A program made the position numbers and the translations under genes. From a virus (Duplodnaviria; Caudoviricetes), in IMG/VR virus record IMGVR_UViG_3300011977_000007, positions 1-64,000 of that record: DNA of 64,000 bases; one strand, 5' to 3'. The notes beneath the pieces are model-generated. The model saw nothing but the letters and a program-made list of their open reading frames with translations, was not told where the DNA came from and ran no database searches. Numbering within the stretch: the first letter of the stretch is position 1; every line of letters begins with the position of its first letter. Shown here one piece after another: positions 2,314-11,951 of the stretch.

Positions 2314-2340
2314 AAAGAGTAGGGTATAGCCCTACTCTTT
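2314..2340. terminator. Intrinsic terminator hairpin at gyrA 3' end
   Basis: AAAGAGTAGGG-tatag-CCCTACTCTTT inverted repeat. Confidence 0.7.
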
Positions 2341-4689
2341 TTTAATTAATTCTACTTTTATAATTCCTTCTTTACACATCTTTGTTCCGGCAGAAATAGA
2401 ACTACCAACCGGAATATCTGCAACATTAATTTCTAATGTCTCATCTGATCGTATTACTCGTAATGCATAGCTAGCATTACAACTAAAGATATTATGAATA
2501 TAGTCACCCTTAACTAATTTAATGACTTTATTACCAGCCTTATTCCTATCACTTATAGGTAGACCGGAAATATTAAATCTATTAAATTTACCCTTATCGG
2601 TAACTACAACAATATCAGTAGTATCTCTAGTGATTACAGACATACCATCTATATCCAATGTAGTTTTCATTGCTGTATTACCTAAAGTAGATCTCTTAAG
2701 ATATGGAGTTGCTTCTACTGGCATTCTAAGAGCTTTAGCTTTAGTATAAACTACAATATCTGACTTATGGTTTACTACAATAATATCCTTAACGGAATCT
2801 CCTTTGTTAAGTTTTGTATAAGTAATACCACTTGGGGTTGCATTAATTATATCATTAAGATCAATACGTTTAATCAATGCTTTTGTGGTTACCATAGATA
2901 AATAGTATTTAGATTTCTTGTTAGCAAAAGTCTCTAAGATAGGCACATACATTACAGATATGATATTTGAAGTTAATTTCTTCAATAATAATCTAATATC
3001 TGTACCTGCTGAGTTCTTATCCGTAAATGGAATTTTGTGAACTTGTAATCTAAACACTTTACCCATTTGATCGAATAACAGTAAATCTTTAGAATTATCA
3101 GCTATAATTACGGATTTAGGGGTATCGCCTTTATATGCTTTTATTGGATCATTTACTTGCATTTTCTTTACGAAATTAGCTTCCGTAATTACTACTTTAA
3201 ATTCCCCTTCAGGTATATCTGATGCTTCAGCTTCAGAAATTAATATTGATTTTCTTGGTGAGCCATATTTAGCCTTGATCTCTAATAATTCCTGTTCAAT
3301 CTCTGTATCAATTAAAGATTCATTAGTAATATACTTTACACAAATATCTGCTTTACTTAATAAATCTTTTTGTTCATCCTCATACTTATGAAGATTACCT
3401 CTGGAGAGAGCTTTAAGCTGAGTTCTTAATACGAATGTAGCCTGTAAATCTGTAATCTTTAATTTCTTTACAAGCCAATCTACAAGATATGCTTCATCCA
3501 TTGATGATTGATTTCTTATCATATGAACGATGTTTTCGACATCTCCTGACTTAAGAATCTTAATATAAGTATCAATCTGATGTAATCTCGTTTCAATTTT
3601 CTGCAATCTAAAGTTATAAAGTCTAAATTTAATACTTCTACGATATTCTAAGAAGTATAATAAATATGCTTTATAACTAAGACGTTGAATATCCATTCCA
3701 TTTAATACTTGGAAGTTTACTCTCTTAGATACCTGAAGCTGTGTATTCTTATATAAGACCTGCTTTACGTAATTAGGATCAGCTCCCTTTGTAAGATAGA
3801 TTCGCAAATCTAATTGTTTATCTGTAGAGTGATCCTGAATATCGGATACCTGAATAAGTTTCTTTTCTTTGATCAAATCTTCAATGTTTTCATAAACCTT
3901 ATTTGACCAAACTAAATCCGGTGTTGATTGAATCGATAAATATTTACCACTCTTATCTTCACCATCTCTAATAATTCCTCGTACTAAGAAATTACCAAAT
4001 CCCATATTAGAAATCTTTTTCCAATCAGTATTTACTATTTCACAAGGCATACATTGATCTGGAATTAAGATAATTTTCGCATTTGGATTATGAAGTAATG
4101 TTATCGTAGCATCAATTACATCATTTAATGAATGACATGGAACTTCAATACGCATACCGATTGCAATACCAAATGTACCATTTACTAAAAGAAGTGGTAC
4201 TTTAACTGGTAAAGATTCTGGTTCTTTTTCATGGTTATCAAATGTAGGTTGCCAGTTAACAACCTGTTTAGTTTCAGCTAATTCGCCAATTGCACAATGC
4301 AATCCAAAATCAGAAATATATGATTCAGTATATCGCATTGCAGCTTGATCACCACCCTGAATTGAACCACTAGCACTATCATATGTTACCAGTGGTACTT
4401 TAGATTCAAACCAGTTAGCCATTGGCTTCATTGCATCATAAATAGATGTGTCACCATGAGGGTGATAAGTACCCATACAATCACCGACGGTTTTAGCTGA
4501 TTTACGTTTTGTATTAATACTAATACATTTAGTGTCGTTAAACATCGTGTATAGTATTCTACGTTGTACTGGTTTTAAACCATCTCTAATATCTGGCACG
4601 TATCTATTATATAATATATATAATGAATATCTAGCCATACCACGTTTTGATTCTTCTCTAGAATCAACCTGTATGATATTATCTTTCAT
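2332..4689 (-). CDS. gyrA: Type IIA topoisomerase (DNA gyrase) subunit A
   Basis: PDIRDGLKPVQRRILY, YHPHGD, AAMRYTE catalytic Tyr, C-terminal pinwheel-like repeats. Confidence 0.95.
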   Translation of the reverse strand: MKDNIIQVDSREESKRGMARYSLYILYNRYVPDIRDGLKPVQRRILYTMFNDTKCISINTKRKSAKTVGDCMGTYHPHGDTSIYDAMKPMANWFESKVPLVTYDSASGSIQGGDQAAMRYTESYISDFGLHCAIGELAETKQVVNWQPTFDNHEKEPESLPVKVPLLLVNGTFGIAIGMRIEVPCHSLNDVIDATITLLHNPNAKIILIPDQCMPCEIVNTDWKKISNMGFGNFLVRGIIRDGEDKSGKYLSIQSTPDLVWSNKVYENIEDLIKEKKLIQVSDIQDHSTDKQLDLRIYLTKGADPNYVKQVLYKNTQLQVSKRVNFQVLNGMDIQRLSYKAYLLYFLEYRRSIKFRLYNFRLQKIETRLHQIDTYIKILKSGDVENIVHMIRNQSSMDEAYLVDWLVKKLKITDLQATFVLRTQLKALSRGNLHKYEDEQKDLLSKADICVKYITNESLIDTEIEQELLEIKAKYGSPRKSILISEAEASDIPEGEFKVVITEANFVKKMQVNDPIKAYKGDTPKSVIIADNSKDLLLFDQMGKVFRLQVHKIPFTDKNSAGTDIRLLLKKLTSNIISVMYVPILETFANKKSKYYLSMVTTKALIKRIDLNDIINATPSGITYTKLNKGDSVKDIIVVNHKSDIVVYTKAKALRMPVEATPYLKRSTLGNTAMKTTLDIDGMSVITRDTTDIVVVTDKGKFNRFNISGLPISDRNKAGNKVIKLVKGDYIHNIFSCNASYALRVIRSDETLEINVADIPVGSSISAGTKMCKEGIIKVELIKKE

Positions 4690-5769: not shown

Positions 5770-5803
5770 AAGATATAGTATAGCTTGCGCTATACTATAT
5801 CTT
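5770..5803. terminator. Bidirectional terminator between convergent genes
   Basis: AAGATATAGTATAGC-ttgc-GCTATACTATATCTT. Confidence 0.7.
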
Positions 5804-5963
5804 CTTTTCGAATTTCGATACCTTTAATAAATGCTGATTTGTCAGATTGTAATTCTGTAAAGTATTTAAGTTCTTTCTTAATATCATCTATTGTATATTG
5901 TTTTAATATACGTCCTTGGTTTGGCAATACAGTTGATGCTGCCAAATCTTCGCCTGGCATTTC
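5790..5963 (-). CDS. gyrB: gyrB exon 5 (EMPGEDLAASTVLP...)
   Basis: Follows the intron terminal G; completes KGLG-EM motif. Confidence 0.88.
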   Translation of the reverse strand, partial: EMPGEDLAASTVLPNQGRILKQYTIDDIKKELKYFTELQSDKSAFIKGIEIRKEDIV

Positions 5964-8900
5964 CAGTGCCTTCACATAGGTCGTTAATCTATGCAGTTCT
6001 CTAATGAACTTCTCTAGTTTTTCTCTAGATGTTGAGACTATATCATCATCTTAGAAAGATGCTTTTCCACTTCCATTTAAAGGGTTCTCACCTACTCACT
6101 TGAGCCGTACTCCTATAGACGAATCTCACGTCCCTTCCGGGGATAGTCGTTGAACTAATATAAATTATATTAGTTGCTGATTATACATTATATAAGACCT
6201 TAGCACGTATATTTATTATACGCTTTTATTTCAGCATAGCCCATCTCTCTACTTGTTTCTGAATTTCTTCTCCTTATTAGGCTAGAGAGCTTTAGCATTT
6301 CCCAGCAATTCGAAAAAGTTTTCATGCTATATTGCTATAGTATGGGGCAAAATGTCTACCCAATCCTTTATATCTTGATATATTCTTTGGTTCAAATGAT
6401 TTAAATAATGTCATAAGCCCATATATAGTCATTTTATTATTATTGACTATATAATATTCTTCTGATTTATCAATATACTTGATTACTTCAGCACAATCAT
6501 TGATTAATCTTTGTGTAAAGAATACTGTTTGGATTTGATTATTACTTAATACCTTAAGAACTAACACACCATTTATAGTTTTAACCTCAGCATACTTATA
6601 AGTTTTATTAATTAAAGATATGAGTTTCTTTTCATTAAGTTTTCTATTATATAATAGAAACTCTAATAAATATGGGTCAAGCGAATAAGTTAATGCTATT
6701 TTATTAAGCTCATCTACATAATATCTATTCTTATAAAGAATTTGAGTAATTTCCTTTTTAGTATAAGGTCTCTTTTTAAGATTAAAAATCTTATTTTCTT
6801 TACAGAATGTAGACTGTACGTATTCAATATAATCTATATTATTAGCAAAGAACTTCTTTTGCTTACCAATCATAACGCCGAATAATGGTGGGTTTGCCAC
6901 ATATAATTTTCCTTGTTCGATTACGAATGGTAAATATCTTAAGAAGAATGTAAATAATAAGAATGTAATATGATCACCATCAGCATCGGCATCTGTTGCT
7001 ATTACAACTTTTTCTGGTCTAAATTTCTCTGGATCAAATTTCTTTGAATATCCCTTGTATCCAAATATATTTAATAATCCGGATACTTCAGCATTATCAA
7101 AGAATTTCTGTTTAGGCGTCGTTAACGCATTAGAGAATTTCAATTGTCTTCACATAGGTCGTTAATCTATGCAGTTCTCTAATGAACTTCTATGGTTTTT
7201 CTCCATACGTTGAGACTATATCATTATCCATTACTGGATATCTTATTACTTCCATTTAAAGGATTCTCACCTACCTACTTAGGCCGTACTCCAATTGACG
7301 ATTTTCACGTCCCGTATAGGGGATAGTCGTTGAACTATATTAAAAATATAGCTGCTGATTATACATTGTTAATACTACTTAGCACTCTATAATATAGAGC
7401 TTTTATTTCAGCTTATAGCATCTTAGAACTTGTTTCTGTCTTTCGACTCCTAAATTAGGCATCTAAGCTTTAGCAACTCCCAGCAATTCAATAAGATTTA
7501 GACACTATATTACTATAGTGAATAGGCAAATATCTACCTCGTATAGGCATTATCATTCTCTTCACACTAGTCGTTAATTAGTGCAGTTCTCTTATGAACT
7601 TCCTAGGTATTTCTCCTAGAGTTGAGACTATATCATCATCTTAGAAAGATGCGCTTCCACTTCGATTTAAGAGGTTCTCACTCACCCACTTGGGCCCTAC
7701 TCCAATTGACGATTTTCACGTCCCATATAGGGGATAGTCGTTGAACGTTCCTAATAAAATATTAGGCTTCGCTGCTGATTATACATTGTTAATAGTTTTT
7801 AGGGCATATTTATTTTATAAATACGCTTTTATTTCACCATGAACCATCTTAGAACTTGTTTCTGTCTTTCGACTCCCATAGGCATCTAAGCTTTAGCAAC
7901 TCCCAGCAATTCAAAAGCATACGCATGCTATATCTCTATAGCATGGGGCATAATGTTTACCTTGTGTTTGTTTATCTCTATTATTTTCAAGAGAAGAAGC
8001 AGCTGAATCACCCTCAACAATCCAAACTTCAATATTCTTCTTTCCGTTTGGCTTTTTATATTTAGCTGGTAATCCACCCGGTAATACAGATGTAGTATAT
8101 TTATCTGAAAGCTTGATTTTACTATCATCAACTTTAGATCTAATCTCACATACTTCCTTTAAATATTTACATACTTTATGTAAATCATTAGGATTAGACT
8201 GAGCCCATGCATCTAAAGCTTTAAGGGTCTGATCACAAGCAAATGGCTTCATATCTTCTTTAGAGAAATCTTCTTTACTTTGCGTTATCTTCACACTAGT
8301 CGTTAATTAGTGCAGTTCTCTTATGAACTTCTCTAGGTGTTACCTAGAAGACGAGACTATATCATTATACTTTATTCAAGTATTCTTCCACTTTGATTTA
8401 AGAGGTTCTCACTCACCTACTTAGGCCCTACTCCTATAGACGAATTTCACGTCCCTTCCGGGGATAGTCGTTGAACTTTCTATAATATTATAAATTCGTT
8501 TTCCTTTCTACTACTTTAGCTACTAGTTTAGGATTCGTATTATGTTTTATAAATTCTTCTGGCGGTATATATGGTACCTTATTTAGTAATGGTACTAATT
8601 CATAATTATGATAGTATTCTTGAAAATGATTAAATACATTAGCTGCAACTATTTCATCATCAAATGTACCTAAATATATGCTTGTATTATTCACTGATAT
8701 ACTTGCACTATATGTACTATTTGTTTCTTGATGAACCCCAAAATATTTTGATGATATATTATTTTGATAATTTTGTTTATATTCAATCTTTGCAAGATTG
8801 ATATTATCAATATAGTATAAGAATATACATGTTTTCGGAGAATATATTCTCATATTTTTGGGTATTGATAATTGTAGATAATCTTTATCTAGATTATATA

Positions 8901-10759
8901 AAGTTGGAAATCTGCACCATTTTTCATATTGTTCTACCATACAAATAGTTTTAGAAAAATTATTAAAATCCATCCATTCATTACATACGGTTACTCCAAT
9001 GCCACCATAAAATTTATAATTACTGGCATTTTTATTAGTGCATCGTTTAATCATTTCTCTCCATACATTATATTTATATCTATTTATTTTTTCAGCCCTA
9101 TCATAATTGCTTAGAATATTAGTATCTATTGGAGTAGTATGATTAGCTAATTTATCGCAGATATCTCCATTTTTTGCATGGAATAATTCAACAATATCTT
9201 CAAATCCTGTACTAATAAATTTTATTTTAGCCTTAGTACCAACTCCAGTTTTTCCATTGTAAACTTCTAATATTTTATATGCTCCGTAATTATCAGAGTA
9301 ATATATTTTATTGAAATTTATACCATAGTATGGATCTCGTACTCTCCCATGTAATGCTCTACTTAATCTAGTTACAGTGCATCCATTGGAAATTAAAAAT
9401 ACTATTTTAACTAATACACAACCGTTATTATCATATCCCATATTTTCTTTAATTATATACGGGCCATATTTTGAATCAAATTGCTTATTTATATATTCTT
9501 CTTCTTTTATTTTCATTTTTTGCCATTACGAATTTTATAATATTATAGCTTAGCTGCTGATTATACATTATATAATACCTTAGGACTTATATATTAAATA
9601 TATAAGCTTTTATTTCACCATAGTACATCTCTCTACTTGTTTCTGAATTTCTTCACCTTATAGGCTAGAGAGCTTTAGCATTTTCCAGCAATTCAAAAGA
9701 TTATTCGACACTTTATTACTAAAGTGAAGCGGCAATCGTAAAAACGTTACCGGTAAATAAGGGTTTGATATGAAAACACGAAACTACTGCACGTAGTCCT
9801 GTTCTAATATCTTGAGCATTTACTGTAAGCTTTTTATTATTAACTAAGTAAATCTTATTCATATAATCCCTAAAGAATTTAATTAATCCATCTGTAAAAC
9901 CATCAATATGAGTTCCTTTATTAGATGGACACATATTTGCAAATCCTAAGATTTCAGGATCATCCATTGCTGCTACATCATATGAAAATAGAATATCTAC
10001 TTTCATTGTACCATTATCATGCATAAAATGAATTGGTTGCATGAGATTATTCTTACAAATACCATTTAAAATTCCATATAATCCATCTTTATTTTCAATA
10101 ATGGATTTATGTTTTTGACCCATTTTATCAATAGCATTGAATGTAACCCTAGTACCAATTTTACATAAATGAACAATGCACCATGTAAGATATTCAAGAT
10201 CCTGCCATTCCACGGTAATATCTCCGACCATATCAGATGGTGCAAATGTAGTTATTAATCCGTGTTTTTTACTGTTCTTATTTGTTTTTATAGGAGTTAA
10301 ATGTTTTGATACAACTCCTTCTACAAACTCAACTCTTGCTGCAGTACCATCCATACGATATGATTCTACATTAAAGAATTTTGATAAGAAGTTTGTAATT
10401 GTAGATCCCATACCATTCTTACCAGAAGAATATTCACCAGAACCTTCCTTCTTATCATAGTTTGTTGATGAATGCAATACAGAGAATACCCTTTCCAAAT
10501 CTGGTAAATTAATTCCCTGACCAAAATCTTCAATAATGAACGTATAATTTCTAGTATCTACTGAAACTATAATATTCATATCTAAGGTATTTCCTTTAAT
10601 AATTTCATCTAGGGAGTTCTGAATAATTTCCCTATACATATTAATTAATCCACGGTTACCGAGAGCTCCAATATATACATCTGGTAACTTTCTGACCGCT
10701 TCTAACTCACTCGTTAGATATTGCATTTCTTTTTGTTTATGAATTTTTTGCTCTGCCAT
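5790..10759 (-). CDS. gyrB: DNA gyrase subunit B, spliced from five exons: 10759-9749, 8282-7959, 7553-7536, 7140-6358, 5963-5790 (769 aa)
   Basis: Joined exons restore PLFTG|QSKE, EGDSA...RDKQTQG|IMPIRG|KFSNA, TDADADGDHI and RYKGLG|EMP; N-terminal GHKL motifs EIIQNSLDE, DFGQGI, GKNGMGS. Confidence 0.93.
5964..6357 (-). ncRNA. Group I intron 4 of gyrB, 394 nt, ORF-less
   Basis: Exon ends GGU, intron ends G; core AAUUGCUGGGA, AUCAGCA, GUUCAACGACUA, GAUAUAGUCU; P1 GGU/GCC. Confidence 0.9.
6358..7140 (-). CDS. gyrB: gyrB exon 4 (TOPRIM plus insertion)
   Basis: KFSNA...TDADADGDHI...PPLFG...RYKGLG. Confidence 0.92.
7141..7535 (-). ncRNA. Group I intron 3 of gyrB, 395 nt, ORF-less
   Basis: Same core motifs as sibling introns; GGU 5' site, terminal G. 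Confidence 0.9.
7536..7553 (-). CDS. gyrB: gyrB exon 3, 18-nt micro-exon IMPIRG
   Basis: ATA ATG CCT ATA CGA GGT between two introns; equivalent to the conserved ILPLRG motif. Confidence 0.9.
7554..7958 (-). ncRNA. Group I intron 2 of gyrB, 405 nt, ORF-less
   Basis: Core motifs; CAUUAU in the P1 loop is complementary to the exon 3 start AUAAUG (P10). Confidence 0.9.
7959..8282 (-). CDS. gyrB: gyrB exon 2
   Basis: QSKEDFS...IVEGDSA...RDKQTQG. Confidence 0.92.
8283..9748 (-). mobile_element. Group I intron 1 of gyrB, 1466 nt, carrying a homing endonuclease in the P6 loop
   Basis: Core motifs split around the ORF; ORF flanked by inverted repeat 8481-8499 / 9528-9547. Confidence 0.9.
8488..9516 (-). 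CDS. Intron-encoded HNH-like homing endonuclease with C-terminal AP2 domain
   Basis: YGGIGVTVCNEW..F..F, LDKD...YSPKTCIF, then SKYFGV...YLGTFDDEIVAA. Confidence 0.8.
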   Translation of the reverse strand: MKIKEEEYINKQFDSKYGPYIIKENMGYDNNGCVLVKIVFLISNGCTVTRLSRALHGRVRDPYYGINFNKIYYSDNYGAYKILEVYNGKTGVGTKAKIKFISTGFEDIVELFHAKNGDICDKLANHTTPIDTNILSNYDRAEKINRYKYNVWREMIKRCTNKNASNYKFYGGIGVTVCNEWMDFNNFSKTICMVEQYEKWCRFPTLYNLDKDYLQLSIPKNMRIYSPKTCIFLYYIDNINLAKIEYKQNYQNNISSKYFGVHQETNSTYSASISVNNTSIYLGTFDDEIVAANVFNHFQEYYHNYELVPLLNKVPYIPPEEFIKHNTNPKLVAKVVERKTNL

Positions 10760-11009: not shown

Positions 11010-11951
11010 TTAAGACAGCTGAACTTCAGTGCTTGATGTTGTTGTTCCATTAGCATTCTCAGTTACTGTTGTATTTCCCTGAGTAGCCTGTTGTGGCTGC
11101 TGAGCTGCTGCTGGAGAATATGTTGGTGCTCCCATTGTAGGAACTCCCGGAGTTGGTGCAATTGGAGCATATGGATTTACATATGGCTGCTGCTGATACA
11201 TATTAGCCTGCATTGGATTTATATTTGTAGCATTCTGAGCTACGGTAGGATTAACTGCTGGCTGATTCATGTATCCCGGCATTACCTGCTGTCCCATATA
11301 TCCAGGCATTGGCTGACCCATGTATCCTGCCTGATATCCTGCTGGCTGCTGAGTCATACCCATTCCATAATATCCCTGAGGTGCTCCATAGCTTGGTGCT
11401 GCTGAATATCCCATTAAGTTATTGTACTGGTTATAAATAGCTGCATCATTAGCTGACTGATAGCCATTTACATTGCAATACTTATTGAACTGCTTCATAG
11501 CATACTCATATAAATCTGGGAACTTCTCAAGTAATGGGATCATAGCAAAGTACTCTCTTGTTAACTGTACTCCATAATCTCCAACCCATTTAGCATTCTG
11601 CATAGCTGCAATGAGTTTATCACATACTTCTTTTACTTCTTCCTTGCTAAGATTTTCAGGGCTCCATCTGTTATTACAGATCGGGCAATATACATCACCT
11701 GAACCGTCCTGAATCTGAACAACACGATCAATCTTATTTTGATCTTTGTGGTTACAGATAGCTCTTAACTTATCTGCTTCTGTAATCGTAATATCAATTT
11801 TTGATGGGTTTACCTGTTTGATAATCTGCATCTCTTCAGCTGTAAGAGATGGATTATTCTGTGGAGTTACCATTCCAGTATTATACATTCCTGGCTGATT
11901 ATACATTGGTGCTCCATAGTAAGCCTGCTGTCCATAATAGTTCATATCCAT
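11010..11951 (-). CDS. Zinc-ribbon protein with Q/Y/G/P/M low-complexity termini
   Basis: CNH...CPIC; YYGQQAYYG, GYMGQ repeats. Confidence 0.75.
   Translation of the reverse strand: MDMNYYGQQAYYGAPMYNQPGMYNTGMVTPQNNPSLTAEEMQIIKQVNPSKIDITITEADKLRAICNHKDQNKIDRVVQIQDGSGDVYCPICNNRWSPENLSKEEVKEVCDKLIAAMQNAKWVGDYGVQLTREYFAMIPLLEKFPDLYEYAMKQFNKYCNVNGYQSANDAAIYNQYNNLMGYSAAPSYGAPQGYYGMGMTQQPAGYQAGYMGQPMPGYMGQQVMPGYMNQPAVNPTVAQNATNINPMQANMYQQQPYVNPYAPIAPTPGVPTMGAPTYSPAAAQQPQQATQGNTTVTENANGTTTSSTEVQLS

Follow-up and report, generated by a model that had tools for sequence, protein, structure and literature searches.

A phage gyrB gene interrupted by four predicted group I introns of one family

The interrupted gyrB gene

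The DNA considered here, referred to as the window, comprises bases 1–64000 of a 110-kb contig from an uncultured gut jumbo phage of the Caudoviricetes (IMG/VR record IMGVR_UViG_3300011977_000007). On its minus strand lies a gyrB gene divided into five exons, one of them just 18 nt long, by four inserts with the features of group I introns (Table 1; arrows mark intron insertion points). An earlier sequence-only reading of the region had proposed this arrangement, and its coordinates, junction contexts, and intron positions all proved exact.

A ribosome binding site, AAGAGGTGA, precedes the ATG of exon 1. Joining the five exons gives a 2310-nt frame with a single terminal stop, encoding the 769 aa originally predicted. 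The junctions in the joined protein read FTG↓QSKE, TQG↓IMPIRG↓KFSNALTT, and RYKGLG↓EMPGE, and the introns do fall, as had been proposed, in conserved GyrB motifs (FTG↓Q, TQG↓I, IRG↓K, and GLG↓E). With exon 1 as query, more than 100 full-length GyrB relatives, 766–770 aa long and 42–71% identical, were returned from the database, on contigs of 230–300 kb. When the spliced protein was aligned (MAFFT) with 13 homologues that are uninterrupted or interrupted at site 4 only, a check that the sequence-only reading had put forward, there were no gaps at any of the four junctions. The EGDSA, PIRGK, DADADGDH, and YKGLGEM catalytic motifs are all intact in the joined product. Pfam domains PF02518, PF00204, and PF01751 are detected on single exons; PF00986 is present in uninterrupted homologues. 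The hallmarks of GyrB/ParE proteins found here include the GHKL ATPase, transducer, and Toprim domains, the four motifs, and a GyrA-type partner, and the predicted product is the B subunit of a phage type IIA topoisomerase (GyrB/ParE-like).

Terminator-like hairpins lie at both ends of the gene, the upstream one closing the preceding gene, and between the exons there is no terminator-like site apart from an intron P2 hairpin. Since the hairpins bracket it, gyrB looks like its own transcription unit.

Table 1. Features of the gyrB region in window coordinates, and gyrB intron sites with the loci in which they are occupied. ORF, open reading frame.
Feature	Position	Strand	Description
gyrB exon 1	10759–9749	minus	337 aa; GHKL ATPase and transducer; 3' end CCC TTA TTT ACC GGT; Pfam PF00204 (6e-16), PF02518 (3e-6)
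Intron 1	9748–8283	minus	1466 nt; predicted group I with ORF in P6 loop; P1 CGGU/GCCG; terminal G
Intron-1 ORF	9516–8488	minus	342 aa, in P6 loop; two SH3/Tudor-like barrels, helical middle domain, C-terminal AP2
gyrB exon 2	8282–7959	minus	108 aa; holds EGDSA Toprim glutamate motif; placed by alignment to uninterrupted homologues
Intron 2	7958–7554	minus	405 nt; predicted ORF-less group I; P1 GGU(A)/(U)GCC; P10 CAUUAU/AUAAUG
gyrB exon 3	7553–7536	minus	18-nt micro-exon ATAATGCCTATACGAGGT, encoding IMPIRG (PxRGK motif)
Intron 3	7535–7141	minus	395 nt; predicted ORF-less group I; P1 AGGU/GCCU; P10 AUUU/AAAU
gyrB exon 4	7140–6358	minus	261 aa; Toprim DADADGDH; C-terminal RYKGLG; Pfam PF01751 (6e-7)
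Intron 4	6357–5964	minus	394 nt; predicted ORF-less group I; P1 GGGU/GCCC; P10 CAUUUU/GAAAUG
gyrB exon 5	5963–5790	minus	57 aa and stop; N-terminal EMPGEDL; placed by alignment
Terminator-like hairpin and T-run	5804–5769	minus	16-bp stem, 4-nt loop, T-rich tail; overlaps gyrB stop codon
Palindromic terminator-like hairpin	10983–10950		upstream of gyrB
gyrA-like partner	2332–4689	minus	785 aa, uninterrupted; PF00521 (1e-90), PF03989
Site 337, FTG↓Q			present window only
Site 428, EG↓D			L021
Site 445, QG↓I			present window, L008, L069, L088
Site 451, RG↓K			present window only
Site 506, DADG↓			L009, L021
Site 528, EQG↓K			L021
Site 712, GLG↓E			present window, L007, L017/L018, L021, truncated P0001, P0002, P0051, P0070, P0095, P0102

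Splice sites and intron structure

All four introns begin after GGT and end in G. The phase 0 position after a GGT glycine codon, recognized from the start as a regularity, is found in four of four; in-frame GGT ends 22 of the 733 T positions of the spliced coding sequence, giving a chance probability of about 8e-7 for four of four. The phase adds little to this, because 22 of the 29 GGT triplets in the spliced coding sequence are in frame anyway. The regularity itself can be traced to the introns being one family with a conserved GCC guide and common descent; it is a by-product of this shared guide rather than four independent coincidences. In each of the four introns, as the sequence-only reading had it, P1 is a GGU/GCC pairing with a U.G wobble, with 3–4 bp on the exon side. 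The same holds beyond this gene: in all 16 introns of the family with mapped ends, wherever they reside, 3–5 bp form between the guide and the end of the exon, with U.G at the cleavage site. The guide covaries with the exon, GCC being found with GGU↓ and GUC(C/G) with GAU↓ (in the RNA polymerase intron rnap_C, a copy near 64 kb, and locus L063).

The sequence-only reading had also described, for each intron, a P1-loop segment complementary to its own 3' exon (P10). This stands for introns 2, 4, and 3 (6, 6, and 4 bp, respectively) but fails for intron 1, where there are 0 bp at the canonical register. A shifted P10 for intron 1 (UUUU/AAAG at +2 to +5, or UUUUAC/GUAAAG at +5 to +10) appears possible by eye and was not relied on. 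Some group I introns can do without P10. Over the family, complementarity of the guide segment to its own 3' exon averages 3.0 bp, compared to 1.0 bp for the exons of other introns, and it reaches 4 bp or more in seven of 16 introns as against 2.6% of pairings with non-own exons. P10 also tracks exon changes at orthologous sites, an example being GAUAUGU/GUAUAUC in L069. The 18 nt of exon 3 are split between its two neighbors, with the first six (AUAAUG) forming P10 of intron 2 and the last four (AGGU) forming P1 of intron 3.

A search with group I covariance models, also suggested at the outset, gave matches to Rfam RF00028 for introns 2 (57.3 bits, above the gathering score of 50), 4 (46.5 bits, E = 1e-9), and 3 (33.5 bits, E = 8e-6), but intron 1 as a whole scores just 13 bits. 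The low score is attributable to the 1-kb ORF that splits intron 1; its halves are 85–90% identical to an ORF-less paralogue, rnap_A, which scores 44.2 bits. At the gathering threshold Rfam reports only intron 2 in the window and only two introns among the relatives, so the default threshold under-reports this family.

A family alignment, A3, was made from 13 ORF-less members from the present genome and four relatives (499 columns), and its structure was derived with RNAalifold and an added P7 pseudoknot, giving 88 pairs in 20 helices. Paired bases occupy 96.9% of cells, compared to 34–43% in slid controls, and compensatory changes are found in 52 of the 88 pairs, compared to 8–14 in the controls; on four of five measures, none of 500 shuffles matched the observed values. 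P4 and P7 are invariant in A3 and so uninformative for covariation. The helices match P2, P3, P4, P5 (with a large extension), P6, P7, P7.1, P7.2, P8, P9, P9.1, and P9.2, and P7.1 and P7.2 (columns 302–327 and 340–364, between the P7 5' strand and the P3 3' strand) themselves show compensatory changes. Of the 88 family pairs, intron 1 keeps 80 with its ORF removed, intron 2 keeps 87, intron 3 keeps 82, and intron 4 keeps 84. By this architecture, the family is of IA-like group I type, and the four gyrB introns, which are 73–79% identical to one another, are paralogues within it.

Intron 1 differs from the others in its ORF, which is enclosed by an 11-bp P6 stem (CUAUAAUAUUA/UAAUAUUAUAG). The encoded protein matches PHROG "HNH endonuclease" families (8e-31), though in their non-catalytic parts only. 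There was no Pfam match, and no Pfam nuclease family came up even at E values up to 10; a PDB sequence search gave no catalytic domain; and ESM Atlas scores were all below 0.9, to DNA-binding-type families only, again with no catalytic domain. An AF2 model (predicted local distance difference test score, pLDDT, 91.5) has an AP2 domain at residues 254–316 (Z 6.4–6.8, Foldseek probability 1.0). The middle domain (residues 125–250; 8767–9144, minus strand), when folded alone, has a pLDDT of 94.4. Foldseek and VIA-align comparisons of the whole model and of the middle domain found no nuclease fold, and nothing above Z 4.3 for the middle domain; the best nuclease match, to PacI (Z 4.2), was considered too weak for use. 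Motifs invariant in this domain are RC, YGG.G..W, DKDY, S..TC, and DN.N, with DKDY and DN.N on a strand-strand-helix element. The domain could represent a DNA-binding module of a new kind or a nuclease that has gone unrecognised. There are 44 homologues of the ORF, one of them, P0121, 99% identical and from another data set, and each of the ten closest viral ones is flanked by the two halves of an intron of the same family, in various genes. Overall, the product is predicted to be a DNA-binding protein of homing-endonuclease ancestry.

Related loci and the intron family in this genome

A near-identical phage, L008/L060 (IMGVR_UViG_3300045988_173509, 265,692 bp), encodes a GyrB that is 98.5% identical and carries intron 2 only, as an orthologue 93% identical at the same site. 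Its empty site 1 is identical to the predicted ligated junction over 42 of 42 nt. Sites 3 and 4 are also empty, with site 4 reading GGC↓GAG as compared to GGT↓GAA in the window gene. The two spliced coding sequences have 94 nt but just 11 aa differences (rough dN/dS ~0.04), which places the interrupted gyrB under purifying selection. The exon differences are evenly spread, with a slight excess near sites 2/3 and 4, and there is no clear co-conversion tract at the polymorphic intron sites; co-conversion was therefore dropped as evidence for homing. Covariance-model matches, covariation, the gap-free protein alignment, and these natural intron-less alleles all argue for four group I introns, as first proposed.

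Of 85 related viral loci examined, 64 gave a single unbroken protein match, taken to mean an uninterrupted gyrB. In others, family introns are found after GGT at seven distinct gyrB sites, with one to four per gene (Table 1). In P0001 and P0002, two 80%-identical relatives, GyrB similarity stops exactly at GLG↓ and is followed by KHLAPYY or RHFAPS, the translated 5' end of an intron-4-like intron. The gyrB of L021 (IMGVR_UViG_3300032030_000004, 313 kb; L021:5992–11941), 64–72% identical, has four family introns of its own: 1641 nt at EG↓D, with a homologue of the intron-1 ORF; about 1218 nt at DADG↓; 366 nt at EQG↓K; and 418 nt at GLG↓E, which is the only site shared with the present window.

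A second type of intron, unrelated to the first, was seen at DVD↓ in the Toprim DxD motif of three more distant relatives (L065:7513–7854, L069:7472–7807, and L088:7971–9067). Its 5' splice site follows GAT, with a GUCC guide, and it has no BLAST similarity to the gyrB intron family.

Within the 110-kb contig there are at least ten copies of the gyrB intron family, 70–87% identical. Five form a tandem series within an RNA polymerase beta'-like gene (L012:3270–5703; genome 93.3–95.7 kb), with very short exons between them. Another, at genome position 64065 to about 64480, is near the 3' end of an RNA polymerase-like gene that straddles the window end; its 5' splice site follows CGAT and its guide is GUCG. 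In a FastTree reconstruction from 17 copies, intron 1 groups with rnap_A (85%), intron 2 with its L008 orthologue (93%) and then with rnap_C, intron 3 with rnap_E (83%), and two of the L021 introns (L021_s4 and L021_s528) with each other. The last fifth of intron 2 is a different matter (7554–7634, compared with L012:4197–4280), being 96% identical to rnap_C but 88% identical to the L008 orthologue. This suggests that gene conversion has recently taken place between copies residing in different genes.

Such frequent recombination, with the copies now mosaic, confounds any simple history of transposition. In particular, the argument that introns cluster by genome and must hence have transposed is weakened, since recombination between mosaic copies can mimic clustering. 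One possible, if doubtful, mode of spread is guide-directed ectopic transposition, in which a free intron would reverse-splice, or take some equivalent guide-directed step, into transcripts or DNA after GGU (with a GCC guide) or GAU (with a GUC guide). This would explain why at least seven gyrB glycine GGT codons, and several in RNA polymerase genes, are occupied among related phages, and also why an intron often has its nearest relative at another site of its own genome. If true, it would be a rare natural case of ectopic group I intron transposition in phages. The link between guide and GGU or GAU target bears on how ORF-less group I introns reach new sites, a question the present data do not settle.

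Explanations for the interrupted gene and comparison with known systems

With a probability of roughly 0.88, the gyrB gene is one transcription unit with four paralogous, mobile or recently mobile group I introns, spliced to a 769-aa GyrB, where the splicing is read from DNA. Each intron would fold on the pre-mRNA, with its guide (5'-...GCC) paired to the upstream exon end GGU, U.G at the cleavage site; an exogenous G would cleave at GGU↓; and the segment just 5' of GCC would pair with the start of the downstream exon, clearly so for introns 2, 3, and 4, followed by exon ligation. All four introns would have to splice, with the 18-nt exon 3 retained, to yield a full-length GyrB, which would work with the adjacent GyrA-like protein. 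The introns themselves would be selfish elements, mobile now or recently so, present or absent between near-identical phages and exchanging segments by recombination, and positioned after GGU (or GAU with a GUC guide) in the most conserved motifs; intron 1 alone would carry a protein gene, for a putative DNA-binding protein built of homing-endonuclease modules.

Several observations weigh against this. The exon side of P1 is only 3–4 bp, intron 1 has no P10 at the canonical register, and three of the four gyrB introns are below the Rfam gathering threshold. As regards active homing, the intron-1 ORF has no detectable nuclease domain, and no clear co-conversion tract is seen between the window and L008.

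A rather unlikely extension is that the introns splice but are more than neutral parasites, serving as weapons or immunity determinants when co-infecting phages compete, or timing the synthesis of GyrB. A 98.5%-identical phage without three of the four introns is the kind of setting where intron-encoded nucleases would pay, and at site 4 the empty allele has other wobble bases on either side of the insertion point, as given above. The intron endonuclease gp210 of PhiPA3 is reportedly a precedent for a weapon role in such competition. Here, however, a protein is encoded by intron 1 only, and the searches described above found no nuclease domain in it.

It is improbable that gyrB is instead a decaying pseudogene, with group I-derived inserts of which one or more no longer splice, so that no full-length GyrB would be made and host topoisomerases would be used. 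The three introns under the Rfam gathering score and the unclear P10 of intron 1 would fit this, and four obligatory splicing events around an 18-nt exon look fragile. Yet all exons are complete and keep the reading frame, no catalytic motif is missing, the rough dN/dS relative to the L008 allele is low, the ribozyme cores keep 80–87 of 88 covarying pairs, and P10 is tuned to its own exon in introns 2–4; moreover, five such introns are tolerated by an essential RNA polymerase gene of the same genome. An assembly artefact, in which repeated paralogous introns of about 400 nt were stitched into gyrB, might be imagined for a metagenome-derived fragment (~35% complete) with at least ten such copies at 70–87% identity, but is very improbable: every insert directly follows an in-frame GGT, has a terminal G, and leaves an open frame on removal; the guide segments of introns 2–4 are complementary to their own downstream exons; independent assemblies also contain intron 2 in this position (L008) and, for many relatives, an intron at site 4; a 99% identical copy of the intron-1 ORF comes from another data set (P0121); and the copies are too diverged (13–30%) for k-mer collapse.

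Four introns in gyrB had been thought unusual. This did not hold up, given published gyrB introns (Korn et al., bioRxiv 10.1101/2020.12.14.422802), the intron-dense gut jumbo phages (PMC12880540), and the four-intron gyrB of L021. Group I introns in phage gyrB were thus already known, and the present gene is a crowded new example. What is distinctive is the 18-nt exon between two ribozymes, a near-identical phage that has just one of the four introns, and a guide-target rule that holds throughout the family.

The nearest published cases are those of Staphylococcus jumbo phages. In MarsHill, Madawaska, and Machias, DNA gyrase B is one of the genes that Korn et al. list as disrupted by introns, and they note two introns in gyrA of AR9. 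Splicing of such introns occurs in related phages, and the gyrB introns of MarsHill-like phages are predicted, from protein alignment only. The resemblance to the present gene is in the host gene family, the same broad AR9-like jumbo phage clade, and an occupancy that varies between sister phages. The present gene differs in having four introns, all of one family and about 400 nt long except for the ORF-bearing one of 1466 nt, and an 18-nt exon. In AR9 itself gyrB is uninterrupted (767 aa). The best cultured GyrB relatives are 28–30% identical. The intron cores are 68–76% identical to introns of AR9/PBS1, Twort/K-like Staphylococcus phages, and SPbeta/phi3T, with short stretches 88–92% identical to Vibrio jumbo phage RNA polymerase introns.

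Introns in Twort orf142/nrdE, SPO1/SP82 DNA polymerase, SPbeta/phi3T nrd, and T4 td/nrdB/sunY are self-splicing and of IA2 type. The present family resembles them in its IA-type structure with P7.1/P7.2, its ORF in a peripheral loop (P6 here), its location in conserved motifs of DNA-metabolism genes, its U.G 5' splice site, and its terminal G. It differs in copy number, with at least ten copies in 110 kb, many more per genome, and in an ORF without a recognisable HNH or GIY-YIG catalytic domain. High intron density is also known from gut huge phages, the Jug and crAss-like phages, with many group I introns in essential genes (terL, nrdD, DNA polymerase). In Jug phages each genome holds 18.5 group I introns on average, and metatranscriptome data support 37 of the 76 introns predicted (PMC12880540). 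Those introns, however, average about 206 nt, as opposed to the full-size ~400 nt here, and topoisomerase is there an intact core gene; the present phage group also differs in its contigs of 230–313 kb, 29% G+C, and AR9-like affinity.

For annotation, standard gene callers give four or five gyrB fragments here and miss the 18-nt exon, and default Rfam finds one of the four introns; for this reason GyrB in such phages would be mis-annotated as split or missing. The window phage and the L008 phage together form a natural system that could serve for testing homing, intron-mediated competition among phages infecting one cell, and the avoidance of exon skipping by ribozymes 18 nt apart.

In T4, the GyrB equivalent (Topo2L) is split between genes 39 and 60 by a MobA element (bioRxiv 10.1101/2022.08.31.505936), likewise a mobile element in the Toprim region, and the DxDxDG motif is also an intron site in L009 and L021. 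The T4 arrangement differs in yielding two polypeptides and using translational bypass rather than RNA splicing, and the MobA-targeted DxDxDG site is empty in the window gyrB. A further GyrB homologue, P0118 (1242 aa), has an intein (PF14890) immediately ahead of the Toprim DADxDG motif, only a few residues from both the DADG↓ intron site of L009 and L021 and the part that MobA splits in T4-like phages. Mobile elements of three kinds (intron, intein, and MobA) converge on this motif.

Upstream of the window gyrB, at 11010–11951 on the minus strand, is a gene for a 313-aa protein with low-complexity ends rich in Q, P, M, Y, and G around a short core that contains cysteines, CNH...CPICNN.

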